NCBI GenBank assembly: GCA_035948375.1
Contig: DASZJH010000092.1
Span: forward strand, 4,557 to 68,556
DNA: 64,000 nt
Origin: Chthoniobacterales bacterium
GTDB lineage: Bacteria; Verrucomicrobiota; Verrucomicrobiia; Chthoniobacterales; UBA10450
Reading direction: 5' to 3'
The position numbers and the translations under genes were made by a program. The notes under the pieces were generated by a model. It did not search any database. It saw only the letters and a list, made by a program, of their open reading frames with translations, and was not told where the DNA came from. The first letter of the stretch is position 1. The number at the start of each line of letters is the position of its first letter. Positions 16,958 through 50,495 of the stretch are shown in pieces.

Positions 16958-19017
16958 CAGCTCACGTTCGAAAACGTTCGTCCCTGTTGTTCGACAATCA
17001 ACTCCCTGAAACGTTGATTCTGCGGCCATTCCAGTCCCGGATCAGTCTCAAAGATCAGAATTGCCGCGACGCGGGCGCGCTGCATTAATTCCGAGTCGCG
17101 CCTGAGATTGCCAATTTTTAAGGCGGGGAGTCCGCTCTGCGCCGTACCCAGCAAATCGCCCGGACCACGCATTTCCCAATCGGCCTCGGCCACGGCAAAG
17201 CCGTCGGTGGTTTTCTCCAGCACCGCTAACTTCTCCGCCGCTTCCGACGACACCTCCGAAGTAAGCAAAATGCAATACGATTTATGCTCGCCGCGACCGA
17301 TCCGTCCTCGCAATTGATGGAGCTGGGCAAGTCCGAATCGCTCCGCGTTTTCAATCAACATGACGGTCGCGTTCGCAACATCGACACCAACCTCGATCAC
17401 AGTCGTGCTTATCAGGACTTTCGTTTCGCCGCGGCGAAAGCGGTCCATGATTTCCTGCTTCTCCGGCCCCGGAATTCGACCGTGCAACAATTCGCAAGCG
17501 ATCGGGTGCAACCGCTCACGCCAGCGCTCATACTCTGCCGCCGCCGCCTTCGCCTCCAGTTTTTCGCTTTCCTCGATGAGCGGATAGACGACGTAGACTT
17601 GTCGTCCTGCTTCCAGTTGCGCCCGCAAGAAACTCAACACTTCGCCGAGTTTCGCTGCATCTCGAACCGCGGTGACGATTTTGCCGCGATTGCGCGGCAT
17701 TTCGTCCAACGTCGAAACATCGAGATCGCCATAGACGGTCATGGTGATTGTGCGCGGAATCGGCGTTGCCGTCATTACCAACACGTCCGGCGCCGGTTCA
17801 CGACTGGCCAGGCGCGCGCGCTGGGCAACGCCGAACTTGTGTTGCTCGTCAATAACCACGAGTCCGAGATTCGAAAACGACACTTTTTCGTAAAGCAACG
17901 CGTGCGTGCCGATGATCACGTCGGCTTTTTCATCGCCTTCAACCAATGGCAGAAAACTTTCTTCCTGTCGTGCGGCAGTACGGATCGACAACTTCACTCC
18001 GAGCGGATCGAGCCAGCGCCGCAGCACGGCATAATGTTGCTCAGCCAAGATTTGGGTCGGCGCCATGAACGCTGCTTGATAACCCGCTTCGACTGCCAGC
18101 AGTGTCGCTGCGATTGCAACGACGGTTTTTCCCGAGCCGACGTCGCCATGCAACAAACGATTCATCGGGAATTTCGACGCAAGATCATGCTTAATTTCCC
18201 CGATTACTTTTTTCTGCGCGCCAGTCAGCTCAAACGGCAGCGATCGCAAGAATTTCTCTATCAATTGCCCTCGCCCGCAGTGCGCACCGCCCAGCCGCAC
18301 GTGCGAATCGTTCCGCCGGGAAGCAATCAGCATTTGCATCGCAAAAAATTCGGAGAGCACCAGATGCTCGCGGGCAGAATTGAGCGATTGCCAGCTCTCC
18401 GGAAAGTGAATCGCCCGGATTGCTTCGCCGCGATCTCCATTTTGCAATTTGTCTGGCAACAAAGGTTCGATCGGTTCGGTGTCCAGCTCCTGCAACAGCC
18501 GGTAAATGGTGCTGCGCAACATGCGTTGCGACAGGCCTTCCGTCGCAGGATAAATCGGTGTGATTCCCCGTAAGTGGATCGATCGCTCCTCGTCGTTCTC
18601 GATCACTTCAAACTCGGGATGGTCCATGCAAATTCGCTGGCCGCGAAGCTTCGGCTTCCCAAAGACGACCAGCTGCTGCCCGGTGGCGATCATTTTTTGG
18701 ATGTAGTGCAAATTGAACCAGCGACAGACTAGCGGCTGGCTCAGCGCGTTTGCGTTTGGCTCCTGTAACGTCGCCTCAAAGATCTTTTTCCAACCGCCAA
18801 ATCGCCGGAGCGACGTTTTGATGACCTCGCCGGACAAACAAATCGGCGTGTCGCTTTCCTCGCGCGGGAACCGCGGGAATTGATGTCGATCTTCGTGGCG
18901 CCGTGGAAAATGAGTCAGCAGATCTTCCGCGGTTATGATGCCAAGCCGCCGCAACGCCAGGATTTTCGGGCGCGGAATCCAATCAAGTTCTTCGAGCGGC
19001 TGCGAGATTTCCATCAA
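16957..19017 (-). CDS. recG: ATP-dependent DNA helicase RecG
   Basis: 686-aa ORF with SF2 helicase motifs GDVGSGKT and VVIDEQHKFG and a RecG-like N-terminal wedge region. Confidence 0.95.
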   Translation of the reverse strand: MMEISQPLEELDWIPRPKILALRRLGIITAEDLLTHFPRRHEDRHQFPRFPREESDTPICLSGEVIKTSLRRFGGWKKIFEATLQEPNANALSQPLVCRWFNLHYIQKMIATGQQLVVFGKPKLRGQRICMDHPEFEVIENDEERSIHLRGITPIYPATEGLSQRMLRSTIYRLLQELDTEPIEPLLPDKLQNGDRGEAIRAIHFPESWQSLNSAREHLVLSEFFAMQMLIASRRNDSHVRLGGAHCGRGQLIEKFLRSLPFELTGAQKKVIGEIKHDLASKFPMNRLLHGDVGSGKTVVAIAATLLAVEAGYQAAFMAPTQILAEQHYAVLRRWLDPLGVKLSIRTAARQEESFLPLVEGDEKADVIIGTHALLYEKVSFSNLGLVVIDEQHKFGVAQRARLASREPAPDVLVMTATPIPRTITMTVYGDLDVSTLDEMPRNRGKIVTAVRDAAKLGEVLSFLRAQLEAGRQVYVVYPLIEESEKLEAKAAAAEYERWRERLHPIACELLHGRIPGPEKQEIMDRFRRGETKVLISTTVIEVGVDVANATVMLIENAERFGLAQLHQLRGRIGRGEHKSYCILLTSEVSSEAAEKLAVLEKTTDGFAVAEADWEMRGPGDLLGTAQSGLPALKIGNLRRDSELMQRARVAAILIFETDPGLEWPQNQRFRELIVEQQGRTFSNVS

Positions 19018-23983: not shown

Positions 23984-25717
23984 TTACTCCTCGCGGTCCT
24001 TAACGTCGCTCTTGAACTGGACTTGCGTCGCTTCTTCAGGCGGTGGCGGCTCGCCTGGCTTGGCGTAATCGGCCGCGAGCTGACGGTGTGACGTCGGCGT
24101 TAAACGCACGGCGCCTTTGGCGTTGTTTCGCCAACCATTTGGGTCGGCATATTCCTCGCCGACATGGCGAACTCCGGATACTTGGTCTTCCAAACCTGTA
24201 CCGTAGCGTTGATCGATGATCGTCGGCGTTACGAAGATAAGCAGATTGCGTTTGTGGCGCTCGTTATCGTGACTCTGGAACGCGTATCCCAGCACCGGAA
24301 TATCGCCGAGAATCGGCACTTTAGTTCGAGCTTTCGAAACCTGATCGGAAAGTAATCCGCCAATCGCTAGCGTATCGCCACTCTTGATCAACACGTTCGA
24401 ATCGAGCGAGCGCTTGTCGATAATCGGGCTGGTAACATCAGCGGTGGCAAAACTAAAATGAAAGTCGCCAACTTTATTGCTGATCTCCGGCCGGACTGAA
24501 AGAGTAATGAAATTGTCTTTGTTCACAGACGGCCGCACGACGAGCGTGTTGCCGAAAACCTTGTCCTGAAAGCCGCCAAACACGGCGGTCGCTGTTTGCT
24601 CGTTGAAATTGAGCTGTGGCACCGGCTGGTTCCGAATGACTTCGATCTTGGCCTGCTGATTGTCGGCCGTAACAATTCGCGGATTGGCGAGGAACTCTGC
24701 ATCCGAGTCCTCATTCAATGCCGTCAACGCCGCACTAAATTGCGGCACAGACAGAATCGCGAATTGGCCGAAAGCCAGTTTGTCGAGAGTGCCGAACAAG
24801 TTTTGGCTTAGAGGATTGCCCAAAGCGAACGGTGAAGTTGTACCGGTAAATGTCGACGTTGCCTTACCCGTAGAGTCCACAGTACTCGTCGTGGGCGCAC
24901 CATATTGGAAGGTTTTTGGCGCCGATGCGCTTCCAACCGTTCCCGCCCAATTGATTCCGTAGGCCTGAATTGGATCGGCGCTTACTTCCACCAGTCGTGC
25001 TTCGATCATGACTTGCCTAGTCGGTTTGTCGATCTGCACCAGAACCTTCCGGATGTTGTCGATGTTGCTACGGGTCTCGCTGAAAAACATCGTGTTTGTC
25101 CGCTCGTCGATTTGCGGAGCGATTTTGCTTTGCAGCTGCGAAGCGACCAACGGCGAAATATCCTTGGCCCGGGCGTAACTGAATTGATAACTGTCGCTCT
25201 CGGTTGGCTCCGCCGTCTTTTCTGCAGCGGTCTTGATGTAAAAAACGTTGTCGATCTTGTCCATGAACAGCCCTTTGGCTTTCACGATGATCGAGATCGC
25301 CTGGATGGCGGTCACATCTTCCAAACGCATTGTTACCGTGCCGGTAACTGCGTCACTTACCACCATATTGACCTTGGCCTGGCGAGCGAGCAGTCGGAGC
25401 ACTTGGCCGACGTCGTCGCCCTGAAATTCGCGAACCCCGACTCCGCCGCTTTCGACATTCGCATCGGCTTCGGTTAACACTGGACTTGTCACAGTTGACG
25501 GTGCGGCCGGCTTTGCCGCAGGACTCCCGGCTTGGACTGGGGCTTGGACCACCATCATAGGTGGATGATCGCCTGGCGCAGGTTGAACCTGAGCCGGCTC
25601 TTGAGTGGGCGCGGCTGGCGCCGCCTGAGGCGGATTGGTTTGAGCCTGAGAGAGAGAAAGCGTGGCTAGGAATGCCACCGCTGCGACGCTTCCCCGTTGC
25701 TTGAAAAATATAAACAT
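23984..25717 (-). CDS. Outer-membrane secretin (type II secretion / type IV pilus secretin family)
   Basis: C-terminal secretin domain (VPILGDIPVLGYAFQS...LLIFVTPTII). ATG at 25717 gives the signal peptide MFIFFKQRGSVAAVAFLATLSLSQAQ, then a P/A/Q-rich linker and an N0/STN-like domain. No pil or gsp partner genes are nearby. Confidence 0.88.
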   Translation of the reverse strand: MFIFFKQRGSVAAVAFLATLSLSQAQTNPPQAAPAAPTQEPAQVQPAPGDHPPMMVVQAPVQAGSPAAKPAAPSTVTSPVLTEADANVESGGVGVREFQGDDVGQVLRLLARQAKVNMVVSDAVTGTVTMRLEDVTAIQAISIIVKAKGLFMDKIDNVFYIKTAAEKTAEPTESDSYQFSYARAKDISPLVASQLQSKIAPQIDERTNTMFFSETRSNIDNIRKVLVQIDKPTRQVMIEARLVEVSADPIQAYGINWAGTVGSASAPKTFQYGAPTTSTVDSTGKATSTFTGTTSPFALGNPLSQNLFGTLDKLAFGQFAILSVPQFSAALTALNEDSDAEFLANPRIVTADNQQAKIEVIRNQPVPQLNFNEQTATAVFGGFQDKVFGNTLVVRPSVNKDNFITLSVRPEISNKVGDFHFSFATADVTSPIIDKRSLDSNVLIKSGDTLAIGGLLSDQVSKARTKVPILGDIPVLGYAFQSHDNERHKRNLLIFVTPTIIDQRYGTGLEDQVSGVRHVGEEYADPNGWRNNAKGAVRLTPTSHRQLAADYAKPGEPPPPEEATQVQFKSDVKDREE

Positions 25718-25829
25718 AATCAGTGGAAGTGAGATACGTGCTGGCCGAATAAAAGCAGGAAGCAGACCAGCCCTCGGGAACTTTCCCGCCGCTGGGTACG
25801 GGAACACCTCGTTGGCAGAGTCCTTTTGC

Positions 25830-26510
25830 CTAGCTCGCGGCTCCTCGAGCCACCGCAACGAACGCCTTCATCAGGCGATGATTCTTTCGCCCCGGAGCAA
25901 CTTCCACTCCGCTTGTAACGTCGACTCCGCGCGGACAAACAACGCGGACAGCCTCTGTCACGTTTTCCGGGTTCAATCCGCCAGCTAGAATCACTGTAAG
26001 TCCCGGATTTTCACTCACGAACCCTTGCGCCTGTTTCCACGGAAAAGACTTGCCTGTTCCGCCAAATTCGCCGGTCAAAGCTGTGTCCAAGACTAAAGTG
26101 TCAGTCCGGAAATCGGGAATCTCTTTTAACGATGTCGAATTCGCTACCGGCACGGCCTTTGCGAATTGAACTCCAACGTCGGCTAATCGGCGGCAGAAGT
26201 CGGTTGATTCGTTGCCGTGCAACTGGAGCGCATTGATGAAAGGCAATCGGCTGATCCGAAGAGCGTCCTCCCAGGTTGGATCCGTCAGTACCGCAACCTT
26301 GCCGATTTCCAGCGGTAATCTGCGGATCCACTCGGCGGCGTTATTGATGTCTATGTAGCGCTTGCTTCGGCGAACAAGATTAAACCCCAGCGCGTCCGCG
26401 CCGGCATCGATCGCAGCCCGGGCGTCCGATTCGTTCGTGATTCCGCAGACTTTGACGAAAACGTGACCCCCGGATCGCGGCTTCCCGCCAAACATCGCGT
26501 CGGCTTTCAC
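25830..26510 (-). CDS. trpF: Phosphoribosylanthranilate isomerase
   Basis: The core VKVCGITNESDARAAIDAGADALGFN...LQLHGNE is a PRAI signature. GTG at 26510 forms a GTGA overlap with the upstream stop; ATG at 26495 is an alternative start. Confidence 0.9.
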   Translation of the reverse strand: MKADAMFGGKPRSGGHVFVKVCGITNESDARAAIDAGADALGFNLVRRSKRYIDINNAAEWIRRLPLEIGKVAVLTDPTWEDALRISRLPFINALQLHGNESTDFCRRLADVGVQFAKAVPVANSTSLKEIPDFRTDTLVLDTALTGEFGGTGKSFPWKQAQGFVSENPGLTVILAGGLNPENVTEAVRVVCPRGVDVTSGVEVAPGRKNHRLMKAFVAVARGAAS

Positions 26511-35572: not shown

Positions 35573-35971
35573 TTACCAAACGTAGGCCAGCAATTCGCCG
35601 CCCACTTTTTGTTTCTTCGCTTCCCGGCCTGACATCAAGCCGCGCGAGGTCGACAAAATCGCCGTCCCCATTCCACCAAGCACGCGCGGAATCTCGTCCG
35701 CACCGACATAACGGCGTAAACCAGGACGGCTCACCCGTTTCAAGCCAGTGATCGCGCAAGTGTGATCAACGAGTTTGTTCGTAATCTTGATCCGCGGATG
35801 CGCCGCCTTGGTGTCCACTTCGTAATCGGCGATGTAGCCCTCGTTCTTAAAAATGCGCACCACTTCGGCTTTGAGTTTCGAATACGGCACAAAGACTTCC
35901 ATCTTCTGCGCGCGCGCACCGTTGCGCATGCGAGCAAGCAAATCTGCAATTGGATCAGTAACAGTACTCAT
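35573..35971 (-). CDS. rpsH: 30S ribosomal protein S8
   Basis: 132-aa ORF: [23 protein letters not shown]...GGELLAYVW. Confidence 0.97.
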
Positions 35972-36579
35972 GAAATTGAGGCGGCTTCAGCGGGTCCGCC
36001 ATTGGACGGAGCCGCCGCGGCGGGCTTTTTCGCGCGATCGGCAAAAGGCATTCCCAGCTCGCTCAAAAGCGACTTGGCCTCTTCATCCGTTTGCGCGGTG
36101 GTCACGATTGTAACATCAAAACCGATGTTGCGCTTAATTTTGTCCATCTCGATCTCGGGGAAAATTGTCTGGTCTGGAACGCCGAGCGTGTAATTGCCGT
36201 GTCCGTCAAAAGAACGCGGCGACACTCCGCGAAAATCGCGGATTCGCGGCAGCGCTGCTTTGATTAAGCGCTCGAGAAATTCGTACATCCGATCGCCGCG
36301 CAACGTCACTTTCGCGCCGATGATTTGATCTTTGCGCAATTTGAAATTAGCGATGCTCTTTTTCGCGCGCGTTTCGGCCGCTTGCTGACCGGTGATCAGG
36401 GCGAGCTCCGCTTTCGCTTCCTCCATCGCTTGCTTCAAGTCCGCCTGCGATCCGACTGAAGTATTGACCACAACTTTCACGACACGCGGAATCTGATGCA
36501 CGTTCTTGTACTTGTGCCGTTCGCGGAGCTTCGGCACCACGCGATCTTTGTAATGACGATAAAATTCGTTGTCCATCAC
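35968..36579 (-). CDS. rplE: 50S ribosomal protein L5 (with a ~22-aa A/P-rich tail)
   Basis: 203-aa ORF with the L5 core ([11 protein letters not shown]...[28 protein letters not shown]...) and tail [23 protein letters not shown]. It overlaps rpsH by 4 nt. Confidence 0.96.
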
Positions 36580-36872
36580 GCCGCTTTCTCCTCAGGCTCT
36601 GTCTTCGTCTTCGACTTGGTTTTCTTGTCCGCCTTCTTCTCGATCAATTTCACATTCGAGATGTGGATCGGACCTTCGCGTTCGGCGATCTTACCCTGCG
36701 GATTATCCTGCGACTTGCGCAGATGTTTCTTAATAATACGCACACCTTCGATCAACACCCGGTGTTTGCCTGGAATCACTTCCAGAATTTTACCTGAGGA
36801 GCCTTTGAAGTTTCCGCAAATCACTTCGACCTCGTCGCCTTTCTTGACGTGAAACTTTGGCCGGTTGTTCAT
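36576..36872 (-). CDS. rplX: 50S ribosomal protein L24
   Basis: 98-aa ORF with a KOW motif ([24 protein letters not shown]) and a basic tail. Confidence 0.95.
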
Positions 36873-37234
36873 AGCACCTCCGGAGCGAGCGAAACGATCT
36901 TCATGAAATTGCGTTCGCGTAGTTCGCGCGCCACCGGGCCGAAAATGCGCGTGCCACGCGGATTCAAATCTTTGTCGATGATCACGATCGCGTTGTTGTC
37001 GAAGCGGAGGAACGAACCGTCATCGCGACGAATCGGTTGCCGTGTGCGAACTAACACCGCTCGCACAACCTCGCCTTTTTTAACAGCGCCGGTTGCGCTC
37101 GCTTCTTTCACGTTCGCCGTGATCACATCTCCGATCCGGGCATAGAGTGTCGCCTTACCGATCACGCCGATCATCGTCGCCATCCGCGCGCCGGTATTGT
37201 CCGCCACCTCAAGTCTGGATCGAATCTGCACCAT
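36869..37234 (-). CDS. rplN: 50S ribosomal protein L14
   Basis: The internal ATG at 37234 gives [17 protein letters not shown], the canonical L14 start. Confidence 0.96.
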
Positions 37235-37239
37235 AGAAA

Positions 37240-37551
37240 CTATTTCTGGAGGACCTCCACCAATCGCCACCGTTTCAGTTTGCTCAATGGCCGCGCCTCC
37301 ATGATTCGCACTCTGTCGCCGATCTTTGCCTTGTTCTCCTCATCATGCGCGTAGAAACGGCGGATCTGTTTCACGATCTTGCCGAACTTCGGGTGCGGCA
37401 CGCGCGTCGTGGTTTGAACAACGATCGTCTTATTCATCCGATCGGAAATCACTTCGCCGACCCGCGTTTTGCGCGCGGCGCGAGTGTATCTCGCGGGGAG
37501 CGGTGGCGGTGTCGCTGCTGGTTGCTGAGGTTGTGTCCCTGCTTCGGCCAT
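37240..37551 (-). CDS. rpsQ: 30S ribosomal protein S17 (with a ~25-aa P/Q/A-rich N-terminal extension)
   Basis: 103-aa ORF with the S17 core [45 protein letters not shown]. Confidence 0.95.
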
Positions 37552-37554
37552 AAA

Positions 37555-37791
37555 TTATTTTTTCTTCTTCGCTTTCGGCTCTTCGGCCGGAACGGTCTTC
37601 GGCTGGTTTGCCCGATGAGTGAGGATCGTTTCGATACGCGCCACATCACGTTGGATCAAACGCAAACGGCTTGGCTGCTCGAGCTGGCCGCTCTGCTGTT
37701 GCAACCGCAAATGTAAACGCTCCTGGCGAAGATCGCGTCGCTTCGTCAGTAACTCATCCGTGCTCATCTCCACAATTTCTTTGATCTTCAT
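37555..37791 (-). CDS. rpmC: 50S ribosomal protein L29
   Basis: 78-aa ORF: MKIKEIVEMSTDELLTKRRDLRQERLHLRLQQQSGQLEQPSRLRLIQRDVARIETIL, plus a basic tail. Confidence 0.93.
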   Translation of the reverse strand: MKIKEIVEMSTDELLTKRRDLRQERLHLRLQQQSGQLEQPSRLRLIQRDVARIETILTHRANQPKTVPAEEPKAKKKK

Positions 37792-37796
37792 GTTCG

Positions 37797-38222
37797 TTAG
37801 GCCGCAGCTACGTGATGCCGGCTGACAAATTTTGTCCGCACGGGCAACTTGTCCGCTGCGAGTCGCAACGATTCGCGCGCGACTGATTCAGTCAGACCAT
37901 CCAACTCAAACAAAATGTTTCCGGGTTTCACCGTCGCGACCCAAAACTCCGGCTGGCCTTTTCCTTTTCCCATTCGTGTTTCCGGCGGACGCGCGGTAAC
38001 CGACTTGTCCGGGAAAATCCGGATCCAAAGTTTGCCTTTGCGCTTCATGTTGCGAGTCAACGCCACGCGTGCCGCTTCAATTTGCGTGTTTGTAATCCAC
38101 GCGCGCTCGAGCGTTTGCAGTCCGAACTCGCCGAAGTTGATGCGAAGATTGCGCGTAGCGGTTCCCTTGCGGCTTCCCCGCTGGGACTTCCGATACTTCA
38201 CTCGTTTTGGCATCAACGGCAT
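37797..38222 (-). CDS. rplP: 50S ribosomal protein L16
   Basis: 141-aa ORF: [20 protein letters not shown]... Confidence 0.97.
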
Positions 38223-38231
38223 AAAAATCTC

Positions 38232-38930
38232 CTAGGCTTCGACCGGTTCAGTTGGCGGTGGCGGAGGAGGCGGGAGCGTGGAGGCGGCCTGCTGCTCACT
38301 CACTTCTTCTTGCTTCTTACAGATCCAGCATTTCACGCCGATCTTTCCGTAAACCGTGTTCGCTTCGGCAAAGCCGTAATCGATTCCGGTTCGCAACGTG
38401 TGCAGCGGCACTTTCCCTTCGCGGTACCATTCCGAGCGGGAAATCTCCGCGCCGTTCAATCGACCCGAGCAGCGCAAACGAATTCCTTCTGCGCCAAAAT
38501 CCATTGCGACCTGCACCGCTTTTTTCATCGCTCGGCGATAAGCAATTCGGCGTTCGATCTGCAGAGCGACGTTTTCAGCGACTAATTGCGCGTCGAGCTC
38601 AGGCGTCTTGATCTCTTGGATATCGATCTTGATTTGTTTGCCCTGCGCCATTTTGGAAATCTCTTCCGTCATCTTCTCGATCTCGGCGCCTTTGCGTCCA
38701 ATCACGATGCCAGGACGCGCCGTATGAATCGTTACGCGAATCGAGTTCCAGGCGCGCTCGATCACAATCTTCGCGACCGCTGCGAACTGAAGTTTTTTCT
38801 TCACGTAAGCGCGAATCTCCAGATCGCTGTGCAGAAACGCGGGGAGCTCCTGCGGCGACGCGTACCAGCGCGACCGCCAGTCCCGATTCACTCCAAGTCT
38901 AAATCCAATCGGATTAACTTTTTGTCCCAT
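38232..38930 (-). CDS. rpsC: 30S ribosomal protein S3
   Basis: 232-aa ORF starting [24 protein letters not shown], with a KH domain and a poly-Pro C-terminal tail. Confidence 0.97.
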
Positions 38931-38935
38931 AAAAA

Positions 38936-39370
38936 TTATTTCTTCGCCGCAGCTTTCGCGGTCTTCTTCGGCTTCTTCTCTTTTTTCTCAGCCGCACTTG
39001 CCGACTTCTCTTCCATCTTTTGCTCGGCCTTCTCCGGCTTCTCGTCTGTCAAAACGATCCGAATGTGACTCGTGCGTTTCAAAATCTGCGCTCCACTTCC
39101 CCGCGCGCGGGTCTTCATTCGTTTAATAGTCGGACCTTCGCCGACGACCGCTTCTTTCACGACCAAACCATCGGGCTTCAAATTCGCGTTGTTCTCCGCG
39201 TTCGCGATCGCGCTCTTGAGCGTTTGATTGATCAAGAGCGCAGCCTTCTTCGGCGTGAAAGCTAGAATATCCAGCGCTGCCGAGACGGGCAGACCCTGGA
39301 TCTCTCGCGTGACTTCGCGCGCCTTGAACGGCGAAATCCGCGCGTACCTGTGTATCGATCTAATTTCCAT
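38936..39370 (-). CDS. rplV: 50S ribosomal protein L22 (with a K/E/A-rich C-terminal extension)
   Basis: 144-aa ORF: [36 protein letters not shown]...[11 protein letters not shown], then a basic tail. Confidence 0.96.
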
Positions 39371-40153
39371 TTATTTTAAACTCACTTTCGAGGCATCGAC
39401 CTGGAGCCGATCCCCCACTTTAATTTTTTCCTTTCCAGAATCCTCAATCACCGCGCCGCAAATCCGCTGGCGCACATCCACCACGCGCAACGTCGCAATT
39501 TTTTGTTCACCGCGCATCACTCGCAGCGGCATTCCAATTTTCACCCCTTGCTGCTCGCCGATGTTCGCCACGACAAACGACCACTCGTCCTTCACGCTGA
39601 GCACGCTCGCGTCCATCAAACTAGCTTGCGGCTCCTTTAAGTCCGTAGATGTCGATCTTCCCACCAGCTCGTTCGTCTTTCGCAATTGCGTTTCTACATC
39701 CGCTCGCCCTTGCGCGTCGCCGCCTTGCGAAGTTTTCAAATATCGCAGAAGCGCTTCGTTTAGGCCCAGCAATTGATCACGCAACTCATCGCGTTTTTTC
39801 TGCGCAAGGCGCAGATCGCTTACTGCAGCGAGCAAACGTTGCTCGAGCTTCGCCCGATCTTTGCTCGCTGACGCGAGCCCCAGCGCTTCCATTCGCGCTT
39901 CCAACTCCGCGAACTTGCGCCGGAACACTTCGGCTTCCGCGTTCGACTCCGCCAGGCTCGCCGTCAAAGTCTTGAGCGACTCCTTTGCCGTCGCCAATTG
40001 CCCGCGCAATTCTTCATTCTGCGTCAGCAGCGCTTCCGCGGTGACTTTCGTCTCCGCGCTTTCAATCTTGGATTCTGTCAAAGAACTATTTCCCTGCGCC
40101 TGCGCGACCGAAGCCGCGACGGCGCACCCGCAAACTACCAAAAAAATTCTCAA
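39371..40153 (-). CDS. Non-ribosomal ORF inside the S10 operon: signal peptide, long coiled coil and a small beta-rich C-terminal domain
   Basis: 260-aa ORF. The TTG start (40153-40151) directly abuts the rpsS stop TAG (40156-40154). The stop TAA (39373-39371) directly abuts the rplV ATG (39370-39368). The N-terminus MRIFLVVCGCAVAASVAQAQG is a signal peptide, followed by A/E/L/K/Q heptad-rich sequence. Confidence 0.75.
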   Translation of the reverse strand: MRIFLVVCGCAVAASVAQAQGNSSLTESKIESAETKVTAEALLTQNEELRGQLATAKESLKTLTASLAESNAEAEVFRRKFAELEARMEALGLASASKDRAKLEQRLLAAVSDLRLAQKKRDELRDQLLGLNEALLRYLKTSQGGDAQGRADVETQLRKTNELVGRSTSTDLKEPQASLMDASVLSVKDEWSFVVANIGEQQGVKIGMPLRVMRGEQKIATLRVVDVRQRICGAVIEDSGKEKIKVGDRLQVDASKVSLK

Positions 40154-40432
40154 CTACTTCGTGACCTTCGCCGTGTGCGAACCGTGTTTCTTAAAGATCC
40201 GCGTGGCCGAAAACTCGCCGAGCTTATGCCCGACCATGTTCTCGGTGATAAAAACGGAATTGAACGTCTTTCCGTTGTGCACCAGGAACGTGTGGCCGAC
40301 AAAATCCGGCGTCACCATCGAGCGGCGCGACCAGGTCTTGATCGCCTTTTTTGAGCCCGAGGCGTTCATCTTGTCGATCTTCTCGAGAAGATGCGATTCG
40401 ACGAAGGGTCCTTTCTTTAGTGATCTTCCCAT
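40154..40432 (-). CDS. rpsS: 30S ribosomal protein S19
   Basis: The internal ATG at 40432 gives [19 protein letters not shown], the canonical S19 start. The longer track ORF overlaps rplB. Confidence 0.96.
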
Positions 40433-40437
40433 AAAAA

Positions 40438-41286
40438 TCAAACTTTCTTCTTGTCGCGCTTGCGCTCTAAAATGAATCGGTCGCTCGGTTTGCGTTTCGA
40501 GCGCGTCTTGAATCCCTTTGCCAGTTGTCCCCATGGACTCACTGGATGGTGACGACCACCGCCACCTTTCGATTTGCCCTGACCACCGCCCATCGGGTGA
40601 TCGATCGGGTTCATCACCATACCGCGAACGTGCGGCCGGCGTCCCTGCCAGCGCGTGCGACCAGCTTTGCCGCTGGCGACGTTCATGTGATCGACGTTTC
40701 CAACCTGGCCGACGGTCGCGAAACAATTCTCATGGATCCGGCGCACTTCGCCCGATGGCATTTTCACCAGCGCGTAACCGCCTTCGAGATTGTTCAACGT
40801 CGCTTGCTGGCCAGCGCTGCGAGCAACCTGTCCACCGCGGCCAGGGCTGAGCTCGATGTTGTGAATGTTCGTGCCGAGCGGGATCGCGCGCAGCGGCAAT
40901 GAATTGCCCAGTTCCGGTGCGACATCATTGCCGGCGACAACTTTCGCGCCGACCTGAAGTCCGTTGGGGGCGAGGATGTAGCTTAGCTCGCCGTCGGTGT
41001 ACTTAATAAGAGCAATGCGCGCCGAGCGGTTCGGATCGTACTCGATTCCGAGCACTTCGGCTGCGACACCGTGTTTGCGGCGTTTGAAATCAACTTTGCG
41101 GTAATGCTGTTTGTGTCCGCCACCGATGTGGCGCGAAGTCATGCGGCCGTAATTGTTGCGGCCGCCGGATTTTTTCTTAGGCTCCAGCAAGCTCTTCGCC
41201 GGAGTCCATTTGGTGATTTCATCAAACGCCGGCGTTTGTTTGAAACGCTGGATTGGCGTGAGCGGGCGATAGCTTTTTAACGCCAT
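40438..41286 (-). CDS. rplB: 50S ribosomal protein L2
   Basis: 282-aa ORF: [15 protein letters not shown]...GGGHKQHYR...HPMGGGQG. Confidence 0.97.
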
Positions 41287-41290
41287 AAAA

Positions 41291-41569
41291 TTAAACCAGC
41301 TCGATCTTCTCGCCTTCCGCGAGAGTCACGATCGCTTTCTTCCAATTCGGGCGACGTCCAAGCGGTCCACGGACGCGTTTCTGTTTGCCGGCGTAGTTGC
41401 AGGTGTTCACGTCGACCACTTTCTTTTGGAACAAACGCTGCACCGCGTCTTTGATTTGAGTCTTATTCGCGCGCGGGCTGACGCGAAAAACGTATTTGTT
41501 AAACTTTTCGCCCAGCAGCGTCGATTTCTCGGTCAGCGACGCGGTCTCAATAATTTCGTGCTCGGTCAT
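41291..41569 (-). CDS. rplW: 50S ribosomal protein L23
   Basis: 92-aa ORF: ...[36 protein letters not shown]... Confidence 0.95.
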
Positions 41570-42174
41570 TGCAATCTCTCCGCTAGTTTCTCGAGCGCCT
41601 TCGGAGTCACCAAAATCTTCTGGAACGCGAGCAATTGCTCGGTATTCACGTCCGCAGCGGTCGCCAGTTTCACCGGCTTCACGTTCCGCGCCGATTTGTA
41701 GGTCTTGTCATCGAACGAATCGGAAACAATGAGCACCTTTTCGGCGTCGGTCTGTTTTCGGACAAGATCGACAAACGCTTTGGTTTTGATTTCCGAGACG
41801 GCGAACTTGTCGATCGTCAGAACGTCGCCGGCTTTGATCCGCTCACTCAGCACTTTTTGCAGAGCGAGACGACGAACTGACTTGGAAACTTTCTTGGAGT
41901 AATCGCGCGGCTTCGGTCCAAACACCACGCCACCGCCGCGCCAGATCGGCGAAGAAACGTAACCCGCCCGAGCGCGGCCGGTTCCCTTTTGCCGCCAAGG
42001 TTTCGCGCCTGACATATCGACTTCGGCCTTCGTTTTCGTGTTGGCCGAACCAGAACGCCGCGCCGCGCGCATCGCGACTACGACATCGTGAACGGCCTGC
42101 GAACCGCGACCATCCTCGATGATGTCGATCTTCGCTTCCTTGGCGGCAGCTTTGGTTAAAACTTTCGCGCTCAT
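41566..42174 (-). CDS. rplD: 50S ribosomal protein L4
   Basis: 202-aa ORF: ...KPWRQKGTGRARAGYVSSPIWRGGGVVFGPKPRDYS... Confidence 0.96.
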   Translation of the reverse strand: MSAKVLTKAAAKEAKIDIIEDGRGSQAVHDVVVAMRAARRSGSANTKTKAEVDMSGAKPWRQKGTGRARAGYVSSPIWRGGGVVFGPKPRDYSKKVSKSVRRLALQKVLSERIKAGDVLTIDKFAVSEIKTKAFVDLVRKQTDAEKVLIVSDSFDDKTYKSARNVKPVKLATAADVNTEQLLAFQKILVTPKALEKLAERLQ

Positions 42175-42926
42175 TTCCTCTGGGCTTCTTTAGCTTGAGC
42201 CTTCCTCTCTTCGGCCAATTCCCCTGCTTTCTTGGGCTTCTTGGCGTGAGCGGCCTGGTCTGCCTTCGCGTGTTGCTGATGCAACGCGATTAGCGCACCC
42301 GGATTCTTGATCGCCGGCCTAACGACAACGTAGCTGCCGTTGCACCCAGGTACCGCGCCACTGATCAAAATCACTTTCTCCGCTTCGCGCACCTGCATGA
42401 CGCGCAGGTTCTGTACGGTCACACGTTCGTCGCCCAAATGGCCAGGCATGCCCATGTTTTTCCAAATGCGTCCCGGCGTTGAACGATTTCCGACCGCGCC
42501 GTTGCGGCGATGCGTCTTCGAACCGTGCGCGGCGCCCTGGCCGTCGAAATTGTGTTTCTTCATCACGCCTTGGAAACCTTTTCCCTTCGAACGGCCGATC
42601 ACATCGACGAAATCACCCGGCTGAAATTGGGTAACAGTGAGATTCACTTCACCCTCGGAAAGATCGGCCTTTAAACGAAACTCGCGGACGAATCGTTTCG
42701 GTTCGGAGTTGGCCTTCTTGAAATTGCCGAGCTCGGCTTTGCTCACTCGCGACTCTTTTTGCGAATCGAACCCGACTTGAACCGCCGAGTAGCCATCGTT
42801 GTCGTTCGTTAGGCGCCGCAGAACAACGTTATCGCTGGCCGCAATCACGGTCACAGGATGGAGCCGACCATTGGCGTCGTAGACGCTGGTCATGCCGATT
42901 TTTTGTCCTAGTAAACCGATGCTCAT
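42171..42926 (-). CDS. rplC: 50S ribosomal protein L3 (with a ~40-aa basic C-terminal extension)
   Basis: 251-aa ORF starting MSIGLLGQKIGMTSVYD, with FQGVMKKHNF...HGS..HRR.G in the core and tail ...HAKKPKKAGELAEERKAQAKEAQRK. Confidence 0.96.
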   Translation of the reverse strand: MSIGLLGQKIGMTSVYDANGRLHPVTVIAASDNVVLRRLTNDNDGYSAVQVGFDSQKESRVSKAELGNFKKANSEPKRFVREFRLKADLSEGEVNLTVTQFQPGDFVDVIGRSKGKGFQGVMKKHNFDGQGAAHGSKTHRRNGAVGNRSTPGRIWKNMGMPGHLGDERVTVQNLRVMQVREAEKVILISGAVPGCNGSYVVVRPAIKNPGALIALHQQHAKADQAAHAKKPKKAGELAEERKAQAKEAQRK

Positions 42927-42955
42927 GTTGGCGACGTGGAAAATTTCTCAAGCAG

Positions 42956-43267
42956 TTAAATCTTAATCGTAATATCAACGCCCGCGGGTAGGTTCAGTTT
43001 CTTCAACTCATCCACCGTCTTCGCGGTCGGCTCGATAATGTCGAGCAACCGTTTGTGCGTGCGGATCTCAAATTGCTCCATCGATTTCTTGTCGACGTGG
43101 GGAGAACGATTGACCGTGAACTTCTCGATCAACGTCGGCAGCGGAATCGGGCCGGCCACGCGAGCGCCGGTGCGTTTCGCCGTCTCAACGATCTCGACCG
43201 CGGATTGATCGAGCATGCGATGATCGAACGCTTTCAAGCGAATCCGGATTTTTTGTCCTTCCGCCAT
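42956..43267 (-). CDS. rpsJ: 30S ribosomal protein S10
   Basis: 103-aa ORF: [45 protein letters not shown]... Confidence 0.97.
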
Positions 43268-47775: not shown

Positions 47776-48102
47776 ATGTCGATCCTAGCGATTCTTCTAG
47801 CTCAAGCACAGCCCGCCGCGCCTGGTCCTGGTCCGGCAGGCGGCTTCGGTGGCCTTTTCGTGCCGCTAATGTTGGTGATGGTCATCATGTATTTCATGAT
47901 GATTCGCCCGCAGAAGAAACGGCAGCAGGAGCAGCAGCGGCTGATTGCCAGCTTAAAAACCGGCGACAAAGTTGTGACCAACGCCGGCATTCATGGGTTG
48001 ATCGCGAACGTCAAGGAGACCACCCTGATGTTGAAAGTGGCCGACAACGTGAAGATCGAAGTGGAAAAATCGGCGATCACCAATCTTTTGAAGGAAAGTT
48101 AA
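47776..48102 (+). CDS. yajC: Preprotein translocase subunit YajC
   Basis: 108-aa ORF with a single TM helix then MIRPQKKRQQEQQRLIASLKTGDKVVTNAGIHG. It lies upstream of secDF. Confidence 0.92.
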   Translation: MSILAILLAQAQPAAPGPGPAGGFGGLFVPLMLVMVIMYFMMIRPQKKRQQEQQRLIASLKTGDKVVTNAGIHGLIANVKETTLMLKVADNVKIEVEKSAITNLLKES

Positions 48103-50495
48103 TGAGTCCTGCAGCCACATTTTTCGCAGGAATTGGCCTGTTGGTTTTGTTCGGCTGGTATTTTGCGACCGACAGCGAGCGGATTCGGCGAATGTTGGGA
48201 ACAGCTCTGACGATCGCAATCACGGCCTTTTGTCTCGCCTCGACATATCCGCCGTTCGACCAAAAACGTCCTGACGGAACGATCGTTCGTCCGGGGAAAA
48301 TTCATCTCGGTCTCGATTTGCAGGGCGGCACGTCATTTTTGATTCGGCTTGAGCCGGCGGCCGGCCCCGAAGGAACCAAGCGCCCGATTACGAAATCGAT
48401 GGTCGACCAAGCGATCGAGGCGATCAGAAAACGCGTTGATCAATTCGGAGTGAGCGAACCAATCATTACGCCACAAGGAACTGACAGGATCCTGGTTCAG
48501 ATCCCCGGCCTTGACGCCGGCAAAATCCAGGAAGCGCGCACACAGCTTCAGCGTGTAGCGAAGCTCGAATTCCGGATGGTGTATCCGGACAACGGCGACC
48601 GATTGGCCAAGATCGATCAAGGTCAGGAAGTAATTCCGCCCGACTACCGCATCGAAACCTACACAATGCGAGGCGAAGAAAATGAAAAGTCGCGCGAGGA
48701 ACGGTTATTGATCAAGAAAAAGGCCGATCTCGGAGGTGATCGCGTGACGGAATCTCATGCCTATTATGGCAATGAGGGCTGGACGGTGCAGATGAAGTTC
48801 GATGGCGAAGGGGCCAAGAAGTTTGGCGAGATCACAGCTGCCAACAAAGGTCACCGTTTTGCGATTGTGCTCGACGGCGTGGTTATATCCGCGCCGGTAA
48901 TTCGTGACGCTATTTACGGCGGCGACGCGATCATCACTGGCAAATTTGGCGAGGCGGAGGCGCGCGGGTTGGCGAGCGTGCTGGAAAATCCGCTACAGAC
49001 GCCCGTAAAGATTGAAGAGGAGCGCCAGGTCTCGGCCAGTCTCGGCAGCGATTCGATCAAGAGCGGAATTTACTCGGGCATTGCCGGCTTCGCGTTGGTC
49101 GTTGTGTTCATGATCATTTATTACCGGCTCGTGGGTTTGATTGCGGACATCGCGCTCGCAATCAACTGCATCATGGTGGTCGGCGCGCTCGGAATGTTCA
49201 ACAGCGTGCTAACCCTTCCCGGTATCGCCGGATTAATTCTGAGTCTTGGCATCGCGGTCGACGCCAACGTCCTGATTTACGAACGACTTCGCGACGAAAT
49301 TAAACAGGGCAAAACGCTGCGCACCGCGATCGATACGTCCTACGTGAAGGCATTTAGCGCGATCTTCGACGCGCACGTGACGCAGTTCCTCACCGCGGTC
49401 ATTCTGTTCTGGCTGGCGAGCGGACCAGTGAAAGGCTTCGCGCTGACGCTGACCATCGGCATCGTCGCGTCGATGTTTTCATCGCTGCTCGTCACCTACA
49501 CCTGCTTCTCGTGGGCATTCGCTCTCAATCTTTTGAAGCGCGTCTCAATGCTGCACCTCATTCGCTCGAAGGATTTCGATTTTCTCGGGAACGCCAAAAA
49601 ATTCATGCTCGTCTCGGGAATAGCGACGGTGGCGTGCCTTGCAGTCCTGTTTGTCCGCGGCAACCAAAATCTCGGCGCCGATTTTAGAGGTGGCGATTTA
49701 ATGGTGCTGTCCGCGAGCCAGAAACTCACTCCTGACCAAATCCGGATCGCCCTCGCCAATACTGGACTCCAGAACAGTGTGATCCAATCTGAGCGAGTTG
49801 CTAATCGCGACCTCATTAGCATCCGTTCCGACGCCGGAAACGCGGACAAAATTAAGGCGCGATTGCAGGAAGCGCTGCCAGGCGCCGGTTTGAAATTCGA
49901 ACAAACCGATCACGTCGGCGCGCTGGTTGGAAAGGAACTTGCGAGCAAGAGTGCGCTCGCCCTCACCCTGGGTCTAATCGGCATCTTCATTTACGTGAGC
50001 ATGCGCTTCGGAACCTCGTTCGCAGTTGGCTCACTCGCGGCTCTCGCGCACGATCTCATTATTACTCTTGGAATTTTCTCACTGAGCGGCCGCGAGCTCT
50101 CCTTGATCATGGTAGCTGCCGTCCTGACCATCGCCGGCTATTCGATTAACGATAAGATCGTTGTGTTCGACCGAATCCGGAGCGGTCTTCGAGACCGGCT
50201 TTCGGGTTCAATCGCCCAGGTAATGAACCACTCGATTAACGACACGTTGTCGCGAACGATTCTCACCGGCGGTACCGTTTTGCTCACTGTCCTAGCGCTT
50301 TATTTCTTTGGTGGTCCGGTTCTCAATGACTTCGCCTTCTCCTTTCTCGTGGGCGTCATCGTTGGCACTTATTCGTCGATCTTCATCGCGTCGCCGATCG
50401 TTCTTTGGTGGACGCGCGCTCGTGGCAAAGACACCGCTTCGCTTCGGCGCGAGGTCACGCAAGCGACTACCAGCGCGAATCCAATCGCCCGCTAG
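48102..50495 (+). CDS. secDF: Fused protein-export membrane protein SecDF
   Basis: 797-aa ORF. The SecD-like first ~500 aa has a large periplasmic loop and six TM helices. The SecF-like last ~300 aa follows. The start overlaps the yajC stop. Confidence 0.93.
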   Translation: MSPAATFFAGIGLLVLFGWYFATDSERIRRMLGTALTIAITAFCLASTYPPFDQKRPDGTIVRPGKIHLGLDLQGGTSFLIRLEPAAGPEGTKRPITKSMVDQAIEAIRKRVDQFGVSEPIITPQGTDRILVQIPGLDAGKIQEARTQLQRVAKLEFRMVYPDNGDRLAKIDQGQEVIPPDYRIETYTMRGEENEKSREERLLIKKKADLGGDRVTESHAYYGNEGWTVQMKFDGEGAKKFGEITAANKGHRFAIVLDGVVISAPVIRDAIYGGDAIITGKFGEAEARGLASVLENPLQTPVKIEEERQVSASLGSDSIKSGIYSGIAGFALVVVFMIIYYRLVGLIADIALAINCIMVVGALGMFNSVLTLPGIAGLILSLGIAVDANVLIYERLRDEIKQGKTLRTAIDTSYVKAFSAIFDAHVTQFLTAVILFWLASGPVKGFALTLTIGIVASMFSSLLVTYTCFSWAFALNLLKRVSMLHLIRSKDFDFLGNAKKFMLVSGIATVACLAVLFVRGNQNLGADFRGGDLMVLSASQKLTPDQIRIALANTGLQNSVIQSERVANRDLISIRSDAGNADKIKARLQEALPGAGLKFEQTDHVGALVGKELASKSALALTLGLIGIFIYVSMRFGTSFAVGSLAALAHDLIITLGIFSLSGRELSLIMVAAVLTIAGYSINDKIVVFDRIRSGLRDRLSGSIAQVMNHSINDTLSRTILTGGTVLLTVLALYFFGGPVLNDFAFSFLVGVIVGTYSSIFIASPIVLWWTRARGKDTASLRREVTQATTSANPIAR

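Follow-up and report, generated by a model that had tools for sequence, protein, structure and literature searches.

The 64,000-nucleotide (nt) stretch of DNA analysed here (the window, at its full length: contig DASZJH010000092.1 of assembly GCA_035948375.1, positions 4,557 to 68,556 of the forward strand, from a Chthoniobacterales bacterium) carries on its minus strand a str-S10-spc-alpha cluster of ribosomal protein (r-protein) genes. As read from the open reading frames (ORFs) of the window, the order is fusA-rpsJ-rplC-rplD-rplW-rplB-rpsS-X-rplV-rpsC-rplP-rpmC-rpsQ-rplN-rplX-rplE, then L6, S5, L15, secY, adk and map, then S11 and S4, which is canonical apart from one gene, called X in what follows. 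The order of genes in the S10 operon is among the most stable features of bacterial genomes. X opens with a TTG codon (40153-40151), directly after the rpsS stop, and closes with a TAA (39373-39371), directly followed by the ATG of rplV (39370-39368). An initial annotation had described X as an exported coiled-coil protein lodged in the S10 operon; when re-read from the window, its coordinates, both junctions, the S10 gene order and the X protein sequence were all exact. The features of the locus are given below, with residues numbered along X; dN/dS stands for the ratio of non-synonymous to synonymous substitution rates, dS for the synonymous rate, and pLDDT for the predicted local distance difference test of the AlphaFold2 (AF2) model.

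40154..40432, minus strand: rpsS (ribosomal protein S19), upstream neighbour, TAG stop at 40154-40156; identified by its ORF and translation, and by tblastn with 87-99% identity in 80 related loci.
40151..40156, minus strand: junction of the rpsS stop and the X start (TAG, then TTG), 0-nt spacer.
39371..40153, minus strand: gene X, 260 codons plus TAA, TTG start; predicted exported coiled-coil and β-barrel protein of an uncharacterised family.
40097..40153, minus strand: predicted Sec-type (signal peptidase I) signal peptide, residues 1-19, MRIFLVVCGCAVAASVAQA, with cleavage before QG; hydrophobic segment, small-x-small motif, dN/dS 0.82.
40049..40096, minus strand: predicted mature N-terminus, residues 20-35, (Q)GNSSL(T/S)ESKIE, near-invariant in Chthoniobacterales relatives; dS 0.52.
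39647..40048, minus strand: predicted helical coiled-coil region, residues 36-169; AF2 pLDDT 85-97; dN/dS 0.12; motifs SLAxxNxEAExFRR, EALG and LEQRLLxAVxDL.
39875..39889, minus strand: predicted turn between helix 1 and helix 2, EALGL, residues 89-93; G92 in 93% of diverse members.
39611..39646, minus strand: variable linker, residues 170-181; pLDDT below 60; dN/dS 0.53; low conservation.
39398..39610, minus strand: predicted six-stranded β-barrel (FlgT_C/MreC/F1-ATPase N-terminal type), residues 182-252; pLDDT ~95; dN/dS 0.074.
39368..39373, minus strand: junction of the X stop and the rplV start (TAA, then ATG), 0-nt spacer.
38936..39370, minus strand: rplV (ribosomal protein L22), downstream neighbour.

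X is a genuine protein-coding gene under purifying selection. When 5.8 billion proteins were searched with a word index, 3957 homologues had E ≤ 1e-3; the top 120 of them are 79-100% identical to X and ~255-290 amino acids (aa) long. An exhaustive profile search of 1.84 billion representatives at 50% identity gave 923 clusters at E ≤ 1e-3, 411 at E ≤ 1e-10 and 131 at E ≤ 1e-30, with matches that were nearly all full-length (245-300 aa). As estimated by the Nei-Gojobori method from 81 orthologues, the dN/dS values were 0.145 for X, 0.133 for rplV, 0.068 for rpsS, 0.063 for rplB and 0.049 for rpsC. Broken down by region of X, the ratio is high for the signal peptide (0.82) and the linker (0.53) and low for the helical region (0.12) and the barrel (0.074), a pattern expected for an exported, folded protein. 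A comparison of base composition and codon use with the adjoining genes, as had been suggested in the initial annotation, showed that X is native to its surroundings: its GC content (0.557) and its GC content at third codon positions (GC3, 0.642) are both in line with theirs. Its codon choice is less optimised than that of the r-protein genes (e.g. 0.38 versus 0.05 for GGG), which fits a lower translation rate.

The view that X is not ribosomal in character also holds. The isoelectric point (pI) has a median of 5.5 in the X family and is 8.6 for the window protein, whereas those of the flanking r-proteins range from 9.6 to 10.8, and no r-protein family was matched. The r-proteins are cytoplasmic, strongly basic, RNA-binding and near-universal; X departs from them by its predicted signal peptide, its pI, the lack of a family match and its occurrence solely in sequences labelled Verrucomicrobiota (bar one contig, L066, see below). 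When the window X alone was compared with Pfam, NCBIfam and PDB sequences, nothing significant was found. Neither Pfam nor NCBIfam has a model for the family, and all its matches to known families are below curated thresholds. No description of X was found in the searchable literature on S10 operon insertions in Verrucomicrobia, on Udaeobacter, or on Amuc_0299/B2UMT5 (see below). It is a new family built from known modules. Near-identical homologues of X have received from the automatic pipelines of the Joint Genome Institute (JGI) the names RNase H-like nuclease, myosin heavy subunit, chromosome segregation ATPase, EnvC, MreC and aminopeptidase N; that these names contradict each other points to misannotation driven by the coiled coil. 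The homologues are otherwise annotated as hypothetical in the sources.

The initial annotation had called for a search for a syntenic ORF in related genomes, and such ORFs proved to be the rule. When each GTDB species was represented by one genome, a relative turned up in 231 species; 80 loci were kept, and the order rplB-rpsS-X-rplV-rpsC was found in all of them. To these were added 9 loci of family members that are distant from X (28-41% identity), and 80 loci from a metagenome scan seeded with the most divergent subfamily. The order rpsS-X-rplV was found in 9 out of 9 loci of the distant members; in the two added sets taken together (89 loci, L081-L169), both neighbours were seen in 79, and the other 10 were cut by a contig end, with one expected neighbour visible. 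There was thus no exception to the rpsS-X-rplV arrangement among 169 related loci. The slot is constant down to ~28% identity of the X protein and 61% identity of L2, and in hosts of 39 to 65% GC. The L2 proteins of L081-L169 are 62-92% identical to that of the window, and the maximal p-distance among carriers is 0.39. Divergence of X and divergence of L2 go together (Spearman coefficient of 0.85, 8778 pairs), X evolving about twice as fast. That the distances of X track those of L2 points to one old insertion followed by vertical inheritance. Horizontal acquisition was considered and rejected on account of this relation and of the native GC, GC3 and codon use of X.

With the sole exception of L066, the 80 GTDB loci are labelled Chthoniobacterales, Ca. 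Udaeobacter, 'Spartobacteria' or Verrucomicrobia. By the names of identical or at least 90% identical L2 proteins, the window itself belongs to a Chthoniobacterales bacterium, in agreement with the phylum guessed in the initial annotation, and the other carriers are Chthoniobacteraceae, Verrucomicrobiales and unclassified Verrucomicrobiota; they include the isolate 'Verrucomicrobiota bacterium sgz303538' (GCA_054456655.1, locus L087), which has a chromosome-level assembly of 7.83 Mb. The X family was met solely in sequences labelled Verrucomicrobiota, bar L066. The insertion of X between rpsS and rplV dates back to an early ancestor shared by a large part of the Verrucomicrobiota, comprising at least the groups labelled Chthoniobacterales and Verrucomicrobiales, and X has been kept in that slot of the S10 operon since. 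As to L066 (DATLPS010000068.1), it is a 4.3-kb contig filed under a 'Candidatus Limnocylindria bacterium' (Chloroflexota) metagenome-assembled genome (MAG); it bears a verrucomicrobial rplB-rpsS-X-rplV-rpsC block, with r-proteins 87-94% identical to those of the window, and is probably a mis-binned contig.

The signal peptide proposed in the initial annotation withstood a family-wide comparison. The N-terminus of the window X consists of M-R, then IFLVVCGCAVAASV, a hydrophobic stretch of 15 residues, then A-Q-A, with the predicted cut before the next Q; it contains the sole hydrophobic segment of the protein (best Kyte-Doolittle 10-mer, 3.0). Among 222 members of the family, 207 have a strongly hydrophobic N-terminal 10-mer, 186 a K or R ahead of that segment and 217 a small-x-small motif behind it. 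By these heuristic criteria (hydrophobicity, charge and small-x-small, rather than SignalP), X has the tripartite n/h/c layout of a Sec/signal peptidase I substrate. The sequence of the segment is variable; the hydrophobic core and the small-x-small motif ahead of (Q/E)GNSSL(S/T)ESK persist across relatives, and the position of the cleavage site is constant relative to the mature GNSSL motif. A dN/dS of 0.82 combined with an architecture kept in more than 90% of the members is typical of signal peptides. The h-region is short (10-15 residues), which, together with the conserved cleavage site, argues against a transmembrane anchor. There is good support for the prediction that X is exported via Sec and that its signal of ~19 aa is removed by signal peptidase I to leave a mature protein of ~26 kDa. 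A lipoprotein reading (signal peptidase II) was rejected: Cys10 is invariant among close relatives and absent from many others, a lipobox-like motif is present in only 18 of the 222 members, and the signal would be just 9 residues long. A subset of Udaeobacter-like relatives (loci L020, L048, L055, L057, L065, L071, L075 and L078-L080, and protein P0083) has a Pro/Ser/Ala-rich, low-complexity insert of ~20-30 aa between the mature N-terminal motif and the coiled coil.

For the remainder of the protein, a structural model was obtained with AF2 from a diverse alignment of the family (A2). Its mean pLDDT was 87, and ~95 in the barrel; with a shallow alignment (A1, 20 sequences at 81% identity or more), the barrel was unpredicted and the pLDDT there was 30-45. 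The A2 model has helices at residues 3-90, 97-144 and 147-169. Over residues 36-133, the a and d positions of the heptads are hydrophobic in 87.5% of cases, in a register that is continuous from 36 to 91 and again from 92 to 133. These values and the three helices bear out the coiled coil claimed at the outset. The maxima of conservation flank the hairpin turn and include E73, E89, G92 (in the turn), E104, R106, E133, R150, E154 and R158. Such peaks on both sides of the turn, with charged residues among them, suggest a specific hairpin and a binding surface. The model and the heptad pattern lend good support to an elongated antiparallel coiled coil of ~135 aa in three helices.

The most conserved residues of the family lie in the predicted barrel: G199, G203, G207-M208-P209, R214, D226-V227-R228, G233 and G247-D248. 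Foldseek comparison with the PDB gave as top matches the FlgT protein of the Vibrio H-ring (8z5n, E = 1.1e-4; 3w1e, E = 1.8e-4), followed by the N-terminal barrels of F1/V1-ATPase subunits (root mean square deviation of 2.3-3 Å over 70-78 columns for those that fit best) and by MreC (2j5u, E = 8e-4; 7eft, E = 2e-3). At the sequence level, the window X matched the Pfam FlgT_C model (PF16538) with E = 0.054 and 14.4 bits, for a cut-off of 27; of 32 diverse members, 8 matched it with E ≤ 0.01 (best value, 7.5e-5), below the gathering threshold. The Pfam MreC model (PF04085) was matched by one of the 32 members (E = 0.004), and the NCBIfam MreC models (PRK13922) by at least 3, with E ≥ 2e-4, well below the cut-off. 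A profile search of PDB sequences with A2 had as its best match 8tzk_E, an EnvC-type 'Peptidase M23' chain (E = 5e-5, over the signal peptide and first helix); other coiled-coil proteins came at E values of 0.003-0.05, and the barrel gave weak matches to TsaP and to a MexC-like adaptor. No catalytic motif was identified in the sequence or in the model of X. The C-terminal module had been likened in the initial annotation to an MreC-type or SH3-like barrel: MreC is indeed among the nearest fold relatives by Foldseek, Pfam and NCBIfam, but the 'SH3-like' label found no support. Taken as a whole, the model argues with good support for a six-stranded FlgT_C/MreC-like barrel carried by a coiled-coil hairpin, with no catalytic signature.

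Several known proteins resemble X in part. FlgT (PF16538; 3w1e and 8z5n) is, as predicted for X, periplasmic and has a small six-stranded barrel. However, the FlgT_N and FlgT_M domains gave no Pfam match in 32 members of the X family, a 135-aa coiled coil being predicted instead, and X has no flagellar gene context, its neighbours always being rpsS and rplV. TsaP, to which the X profile has a weak match, has a related barrel. MreC, a rod-shape protein, shares with X the order of the elements, i.e. a hydrophobic N-terminal segment, a coiled coil and a periplasmic barrel; it differs by having a membrane anchor and two barrels, whereas X would have a cleavable signal peptide and one barrel, and X is never beside mreB or mreD. 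An MreC core (PF04085/PRK13922) above threshold with tandem barrels was not found in the X family (32 members and the model). EnvC, which binds FtsX, resembles X by its signal peptide, its long antiparallel coiled coil and its C-terminal β-rich domain, but no Peptidase_M23 (LytM) domain was matched in the 32 members with Pfam or NCBIfam. Homology to EnvC was rejected, the match with E = 5e-5 being limited to the signal peptide and first helix and probably compositional; 8tzk_E was judged a mostly compositional match because the alignment runs straight through the predicted hairpin turn of X.

As to its position, X is best compared with the passengers of the S10-spc-alpha operons (secY, adk, map, infA and rpoA), which are also non-ribosomal genes stably embedded among r-protein genes, with which they are co-transcribed. 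Three of them, secY, adk and map, occur in the spc operon of the window, and SecY is, moreover, an envelope/export component. Those passengers are near-universal, have a known function and reside in the spc and alpha operons, whereas X belongs to one lineage, is uncharacterised, encodes a soluble protein that is probably exported, and has its place within the S10 operon proper. Where gene insertions were chosen as examples in reconstructions of this operon cluster for Gammaproteobacteria and Bacilli, they are mostly between operons and are not always retained (PMC8046335). The maintenance of a lineage-specific exported protein inside the S10 operon is a new twist on the known passenger theme.

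The spacing of X is that of its operon. In the S10/spc stretch (35968-43267), the gaps between gene pairs range from -4 to +9 nt, several of them being of the form TAA-TTTTT-ATG; A/T-rich mini-spacers are frequent and the Shine-Dalgarno complementarity of many genes is weak. Such extreme compactness suggests that termination-reinitiation coupling is widespread in this organism. The 0-nt spacers highlighted in the initial annotation are exact at both junctions, but since all neighbouring pairs are separated by -4 to +9 nt, they are normal for this operon and not remarkable. What stands out is the TTG start of X, all other genes checked in the stretch starting with ATG. In ~30 of the 80 close relatives the rpsS stop is immediately followed by TTG or GTG, and in most of the others TTG or GTG is also the first in-frame start, the true one being uncertain. 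About half of these 80 relatives have X and rplV 0 or -1 nt apart (TAATG overlap), and most of the others have them 60-120 nt apart; across relatives, both the rpsS-X and the X-rplV gaps vary from -1 to ~120 nt or more. Long spacers in many relatives indicate that strict translational coupling is not a conserved requirement: tight coupling is common, not obligatory. In the window, rpsS and X share the same frame with a lone TAG between them. A fusion of S19 and X by stop-codon read-through was rejected because a shared frame with zero gap is found in just ~35 of the 80 relatives.

No sigma-70-like promoter or intrinsic-terminator-like site was detected on the coding strand within or beside X, and Rfam yielded no family, either for the window or for four loci of relatives in which the X-rplV spacer is long; an internal promoter, terminator or RNA element at X was therefore rejected. 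These negative results and the compact spacing, both drawn from the sequence, favour the co-transcription claimed in the initial annotation. Like other non-ribosomal passengers embedded in operons, X lies on the same strand as its neighbours, has no promoter or terminator signal of its own and has a conserved position; it is probably transcribed with the S10 operon.

Two particular points about the junctions were noted. The median dS is low in rpsS (40154-40432, 0.67) and in codons 20-35 of X (40049-40096, 0.52), the value elsewhere in the operon being ~1.1-1.2, and rpsS has a GC3 of 0.76, the top value in the operon; the low dS around the rpsS-X junction could stem from biased codon use or from an RNA-level constraint. 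In locus L013 (DASQBB010000100.1), the usual stop is lost and the X frame extends 61 nt beyond the rplV start, which may be genuine or an artefact of assembly.

An ORF in the same slot is documented in Akkermansia muciniphila MucT, where the gene of an 'uncharacterized protein', Amuc_0299 (UniProt B2UMT5), is transcribed and has those of L22 (Amuc_0298) and S19 (Amuc_0300) as its neighbours (PMC6538878, Table S2). We presume Amuc_0299 to be homologous to X because X homologues fill the slot in MAGs labelled Verrucomicrobiales. Its RNA-seq counts were 98 with mucin and 196 without, a 2.0-fold difference, whereas in the same comparison S19 changed 7.4-fold, L22 11-fold, L2 22-fold and other genes of the cluster up to 41-fold (PMC6538878, Table S2). 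This hints at a partly independent control of the slot gene. Amuc_0299 is absent from the supplement of an Akkermansia co-culture proteome paper.

The explanation that we favour overall, and hold to be probable, is that X is a vertically inherited, exported coiled-coil and barrel protein, co-expressed with the S10 operon and acting as a scaffold or adaptor in the envelope. The sequence of events would be as follows. X would be transcribed as part of the S10 operon, and its translation would begin at the weak TTG or GTG that adjoins rpsS, through re-initiation or coupling, rplV starting in turn directly after X. The precursor would be exported by Sec and its signal peptide removed by signal peptidase I. 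The mature protein would form an antiparallel coiled-coil hairpin carrying the C-terminal barrel, whose conserved charged faces (E73, E89, E104, R106, E133, R150, E154 and R158, with G92, on the hairpin; R214, D226, R228 and D248 on the barrel) would bind envelope partners. Placement in the S10 operon would make X synthesis scale with ribosome synthesis, i.e. with growth rate; a tie between envelope growth and ribosome synthesis had been put forward in the initial annotation as a speculation. A weak start and less well adapted codons would keep the yield of X below that of the r-proteins. Membership of the S10 operon would bring a high, growth-proportional transcript level, and the fold relatives of X, i.e. 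FlgT, TsaP and MreC, all build or organise periplasmic assemblies. On that basis of architecture and position, we tentatively propose, as plausible but short of probable, that X serves in the periplasm as an abundant structural scaffold or adaptor. A bolder version, which we regard as unlikely, is that X is an essential and highly abundant architecture protein of the periplasm specific to Verrucomicrobia (a spacer, a tether, or the scaffold of a ring or elongasome-like complex made from its FlgT/MreC-like barrel), and that selection keeps it in the S10 operon for the sake of hard-wiring the building of the envelope to the output of ribosomes.

A number of points weigh against the explanation that we favour. 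The cleavage of the signal peptide rests on heuristics rather than on SignalP, the barrel matches are weak (Foldseek E values of ~1e-4; Pfam and NCBIfam scores far under the curated cut-offs), and the function is deduced from architecture and position alone. In many relatives, 60-120 nt separate X from rplV, or rpsS from X. If Amuc_0299 is a homologue of X, its 2-fold change, set against changes of 7- to 41-fold for its neighbours, runs counter to strict co-regulation. Furthermore, Amuc_0299 is absent from the supplements of the Akkermansia outer-membrane proteome and secretome papers.

The main rival explanation differs from the favoured one just on whether the position of X is selected, and otherwise overlaps with it. 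X would be a functional exported protein that landed once and was then trapped, as a frozen hitch-hiker, in a rarely rearranged operon; its position would have no regulatory meaning and its expression would be tuned independently, by the weak start, an internal promoter or mRNA stability. The spacers on both sides, whose length in relatives is anything between -1 and over 100 nt, the weak start codons, the codon use less optimised than that of the neighbours and the modest response of the presumed Akkermansia homologue (PMC6538878) all speak for it, as does the observation that the insertions selected as examples in published reconstructions are mostly between operons and often later lost, a sign of strong constraint on gene order (PMC8046335). 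Harder to reconcile with it are the absence of exceptions among the 169 loci, in spite of X identities down to ~28% and host GC contents from 39 to 65%, and the packing of X, in many lineages as tight as that of true operon members. We consider it possible but rather less likely than not. Distinctly doubtful, in our opinion, is the idea that X is a divergent morphogenesis or division factor of the MreC or EnvC type, a membrane-proximal, periplasmic coiled-coil protein whose barrel or hairpin would dock on peptidoglycan synthases (as MreC on PBP2) or on an FtsEX-like ABC complex (as EnvC). It draws on the Foldseek matches to 2j5u and 7eft (E ~1e-3), the MreC matches of one (Pfam) and at least 3 (NCBIfam, E ≥ 2e-4) of the 32 members, the rank of 8tzk_E as best PDB sequence match of the A2 profile (E = 5e-5), the names MreC and EnvC given to some homologues by the JGI pipelines, and the common layout of hydrophobic N-terminal segment, coiled coil and β domain. 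But all these scores are far under the curated cut-offs, the 8tzk_E alignment crosses the hairpin turn and resembles a generic coiled-coil and signal-peptide similarity, and X has a single barrel of ~75 aa where MreC has two, no LytM/M23 domain, and an h-region of 10-15 residues with a conserved cleavage site in place of a transmembrane anchor. In addition, X was never found in an mreBCD or ftsEX context in the 169 loci.

Two other explanations dispense with an exported X altogether. Its location between two r-protein genes and a selection as strong as that on L22 would suit a cytoplasmic, lineage-specific protein associated with the ribosome or its biogenesis, the hydrophobic N-terminus not being an export signal. 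This is very improbable, given a signal-peptide architecture kept in more than 90% of the members on a near-neutral sequence (dN/dS of 0.82), a family median pI of 5.5 versus 9.6-10.8 for the neighbours, the periplasmic location of FlgT, TsaP and MreC, and the lack of a match to any RNA-binding domain in Pfam and NCBIfam. Lastly, the TTG start and the want of a family annotation anywhere might suggest a chance ORF or a mis-annotated intergenic spacer; we give this practically no credence, as it is refuted by the thousands of homologues, by the synteny of the 169 loci, by the domain-specific purifying selection and by the confident fold prediction.

Whatever its exact role, X is a non-ribosomal, probably exported protein retained in the S10 operon across a 39% difference in L2 amino-acid sequence, under a selection as strong as that on L22. 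It is carried by Ca. Udaeobacter and other Chthoniobacterales, a group that ranks among the most abundant bacteria of soils, and probably also by A. muciniphila, a species of medical importance that can be cultivated and is genetically tractable. If the position of X is functional, it offers a natural system for studying how cells match envelope synthesis to ribosome synthesis; should the hard-wiring described above be true, it would amount to a lineage-wide stoichiometric coupling of translation capacity and envelope growth, and relocating X would uncouple both. If the position is not functional, verrucomicrobial phylogeny still gains in X a clean, synapomorphy-like marker, and X would be worth characterising as a well-defined and probably abundant protein of the envelope.

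Some minor observations were made on other genes of the window. Three r-proteins have unusual or extended C-termini: L22 (38936-39370) has a Lys/Glu/Ala-rich C-terminal extension of ~35 aa, while S3 (rpsC, 38232-38930) has a poly-proline C-terminal tail and L3 (rplC, 42171-42926) a Lys/Ala/Gln-rich tail, both unusual. Envelope or export genes with no evident link to X are also present elsewhere in the window, at the following positions.

23984-25858: secretin (Secretin and Secretin_N domains).
48102-50495: fused SecDF.
15461-17029: DegP-like protease with PDZ domains.

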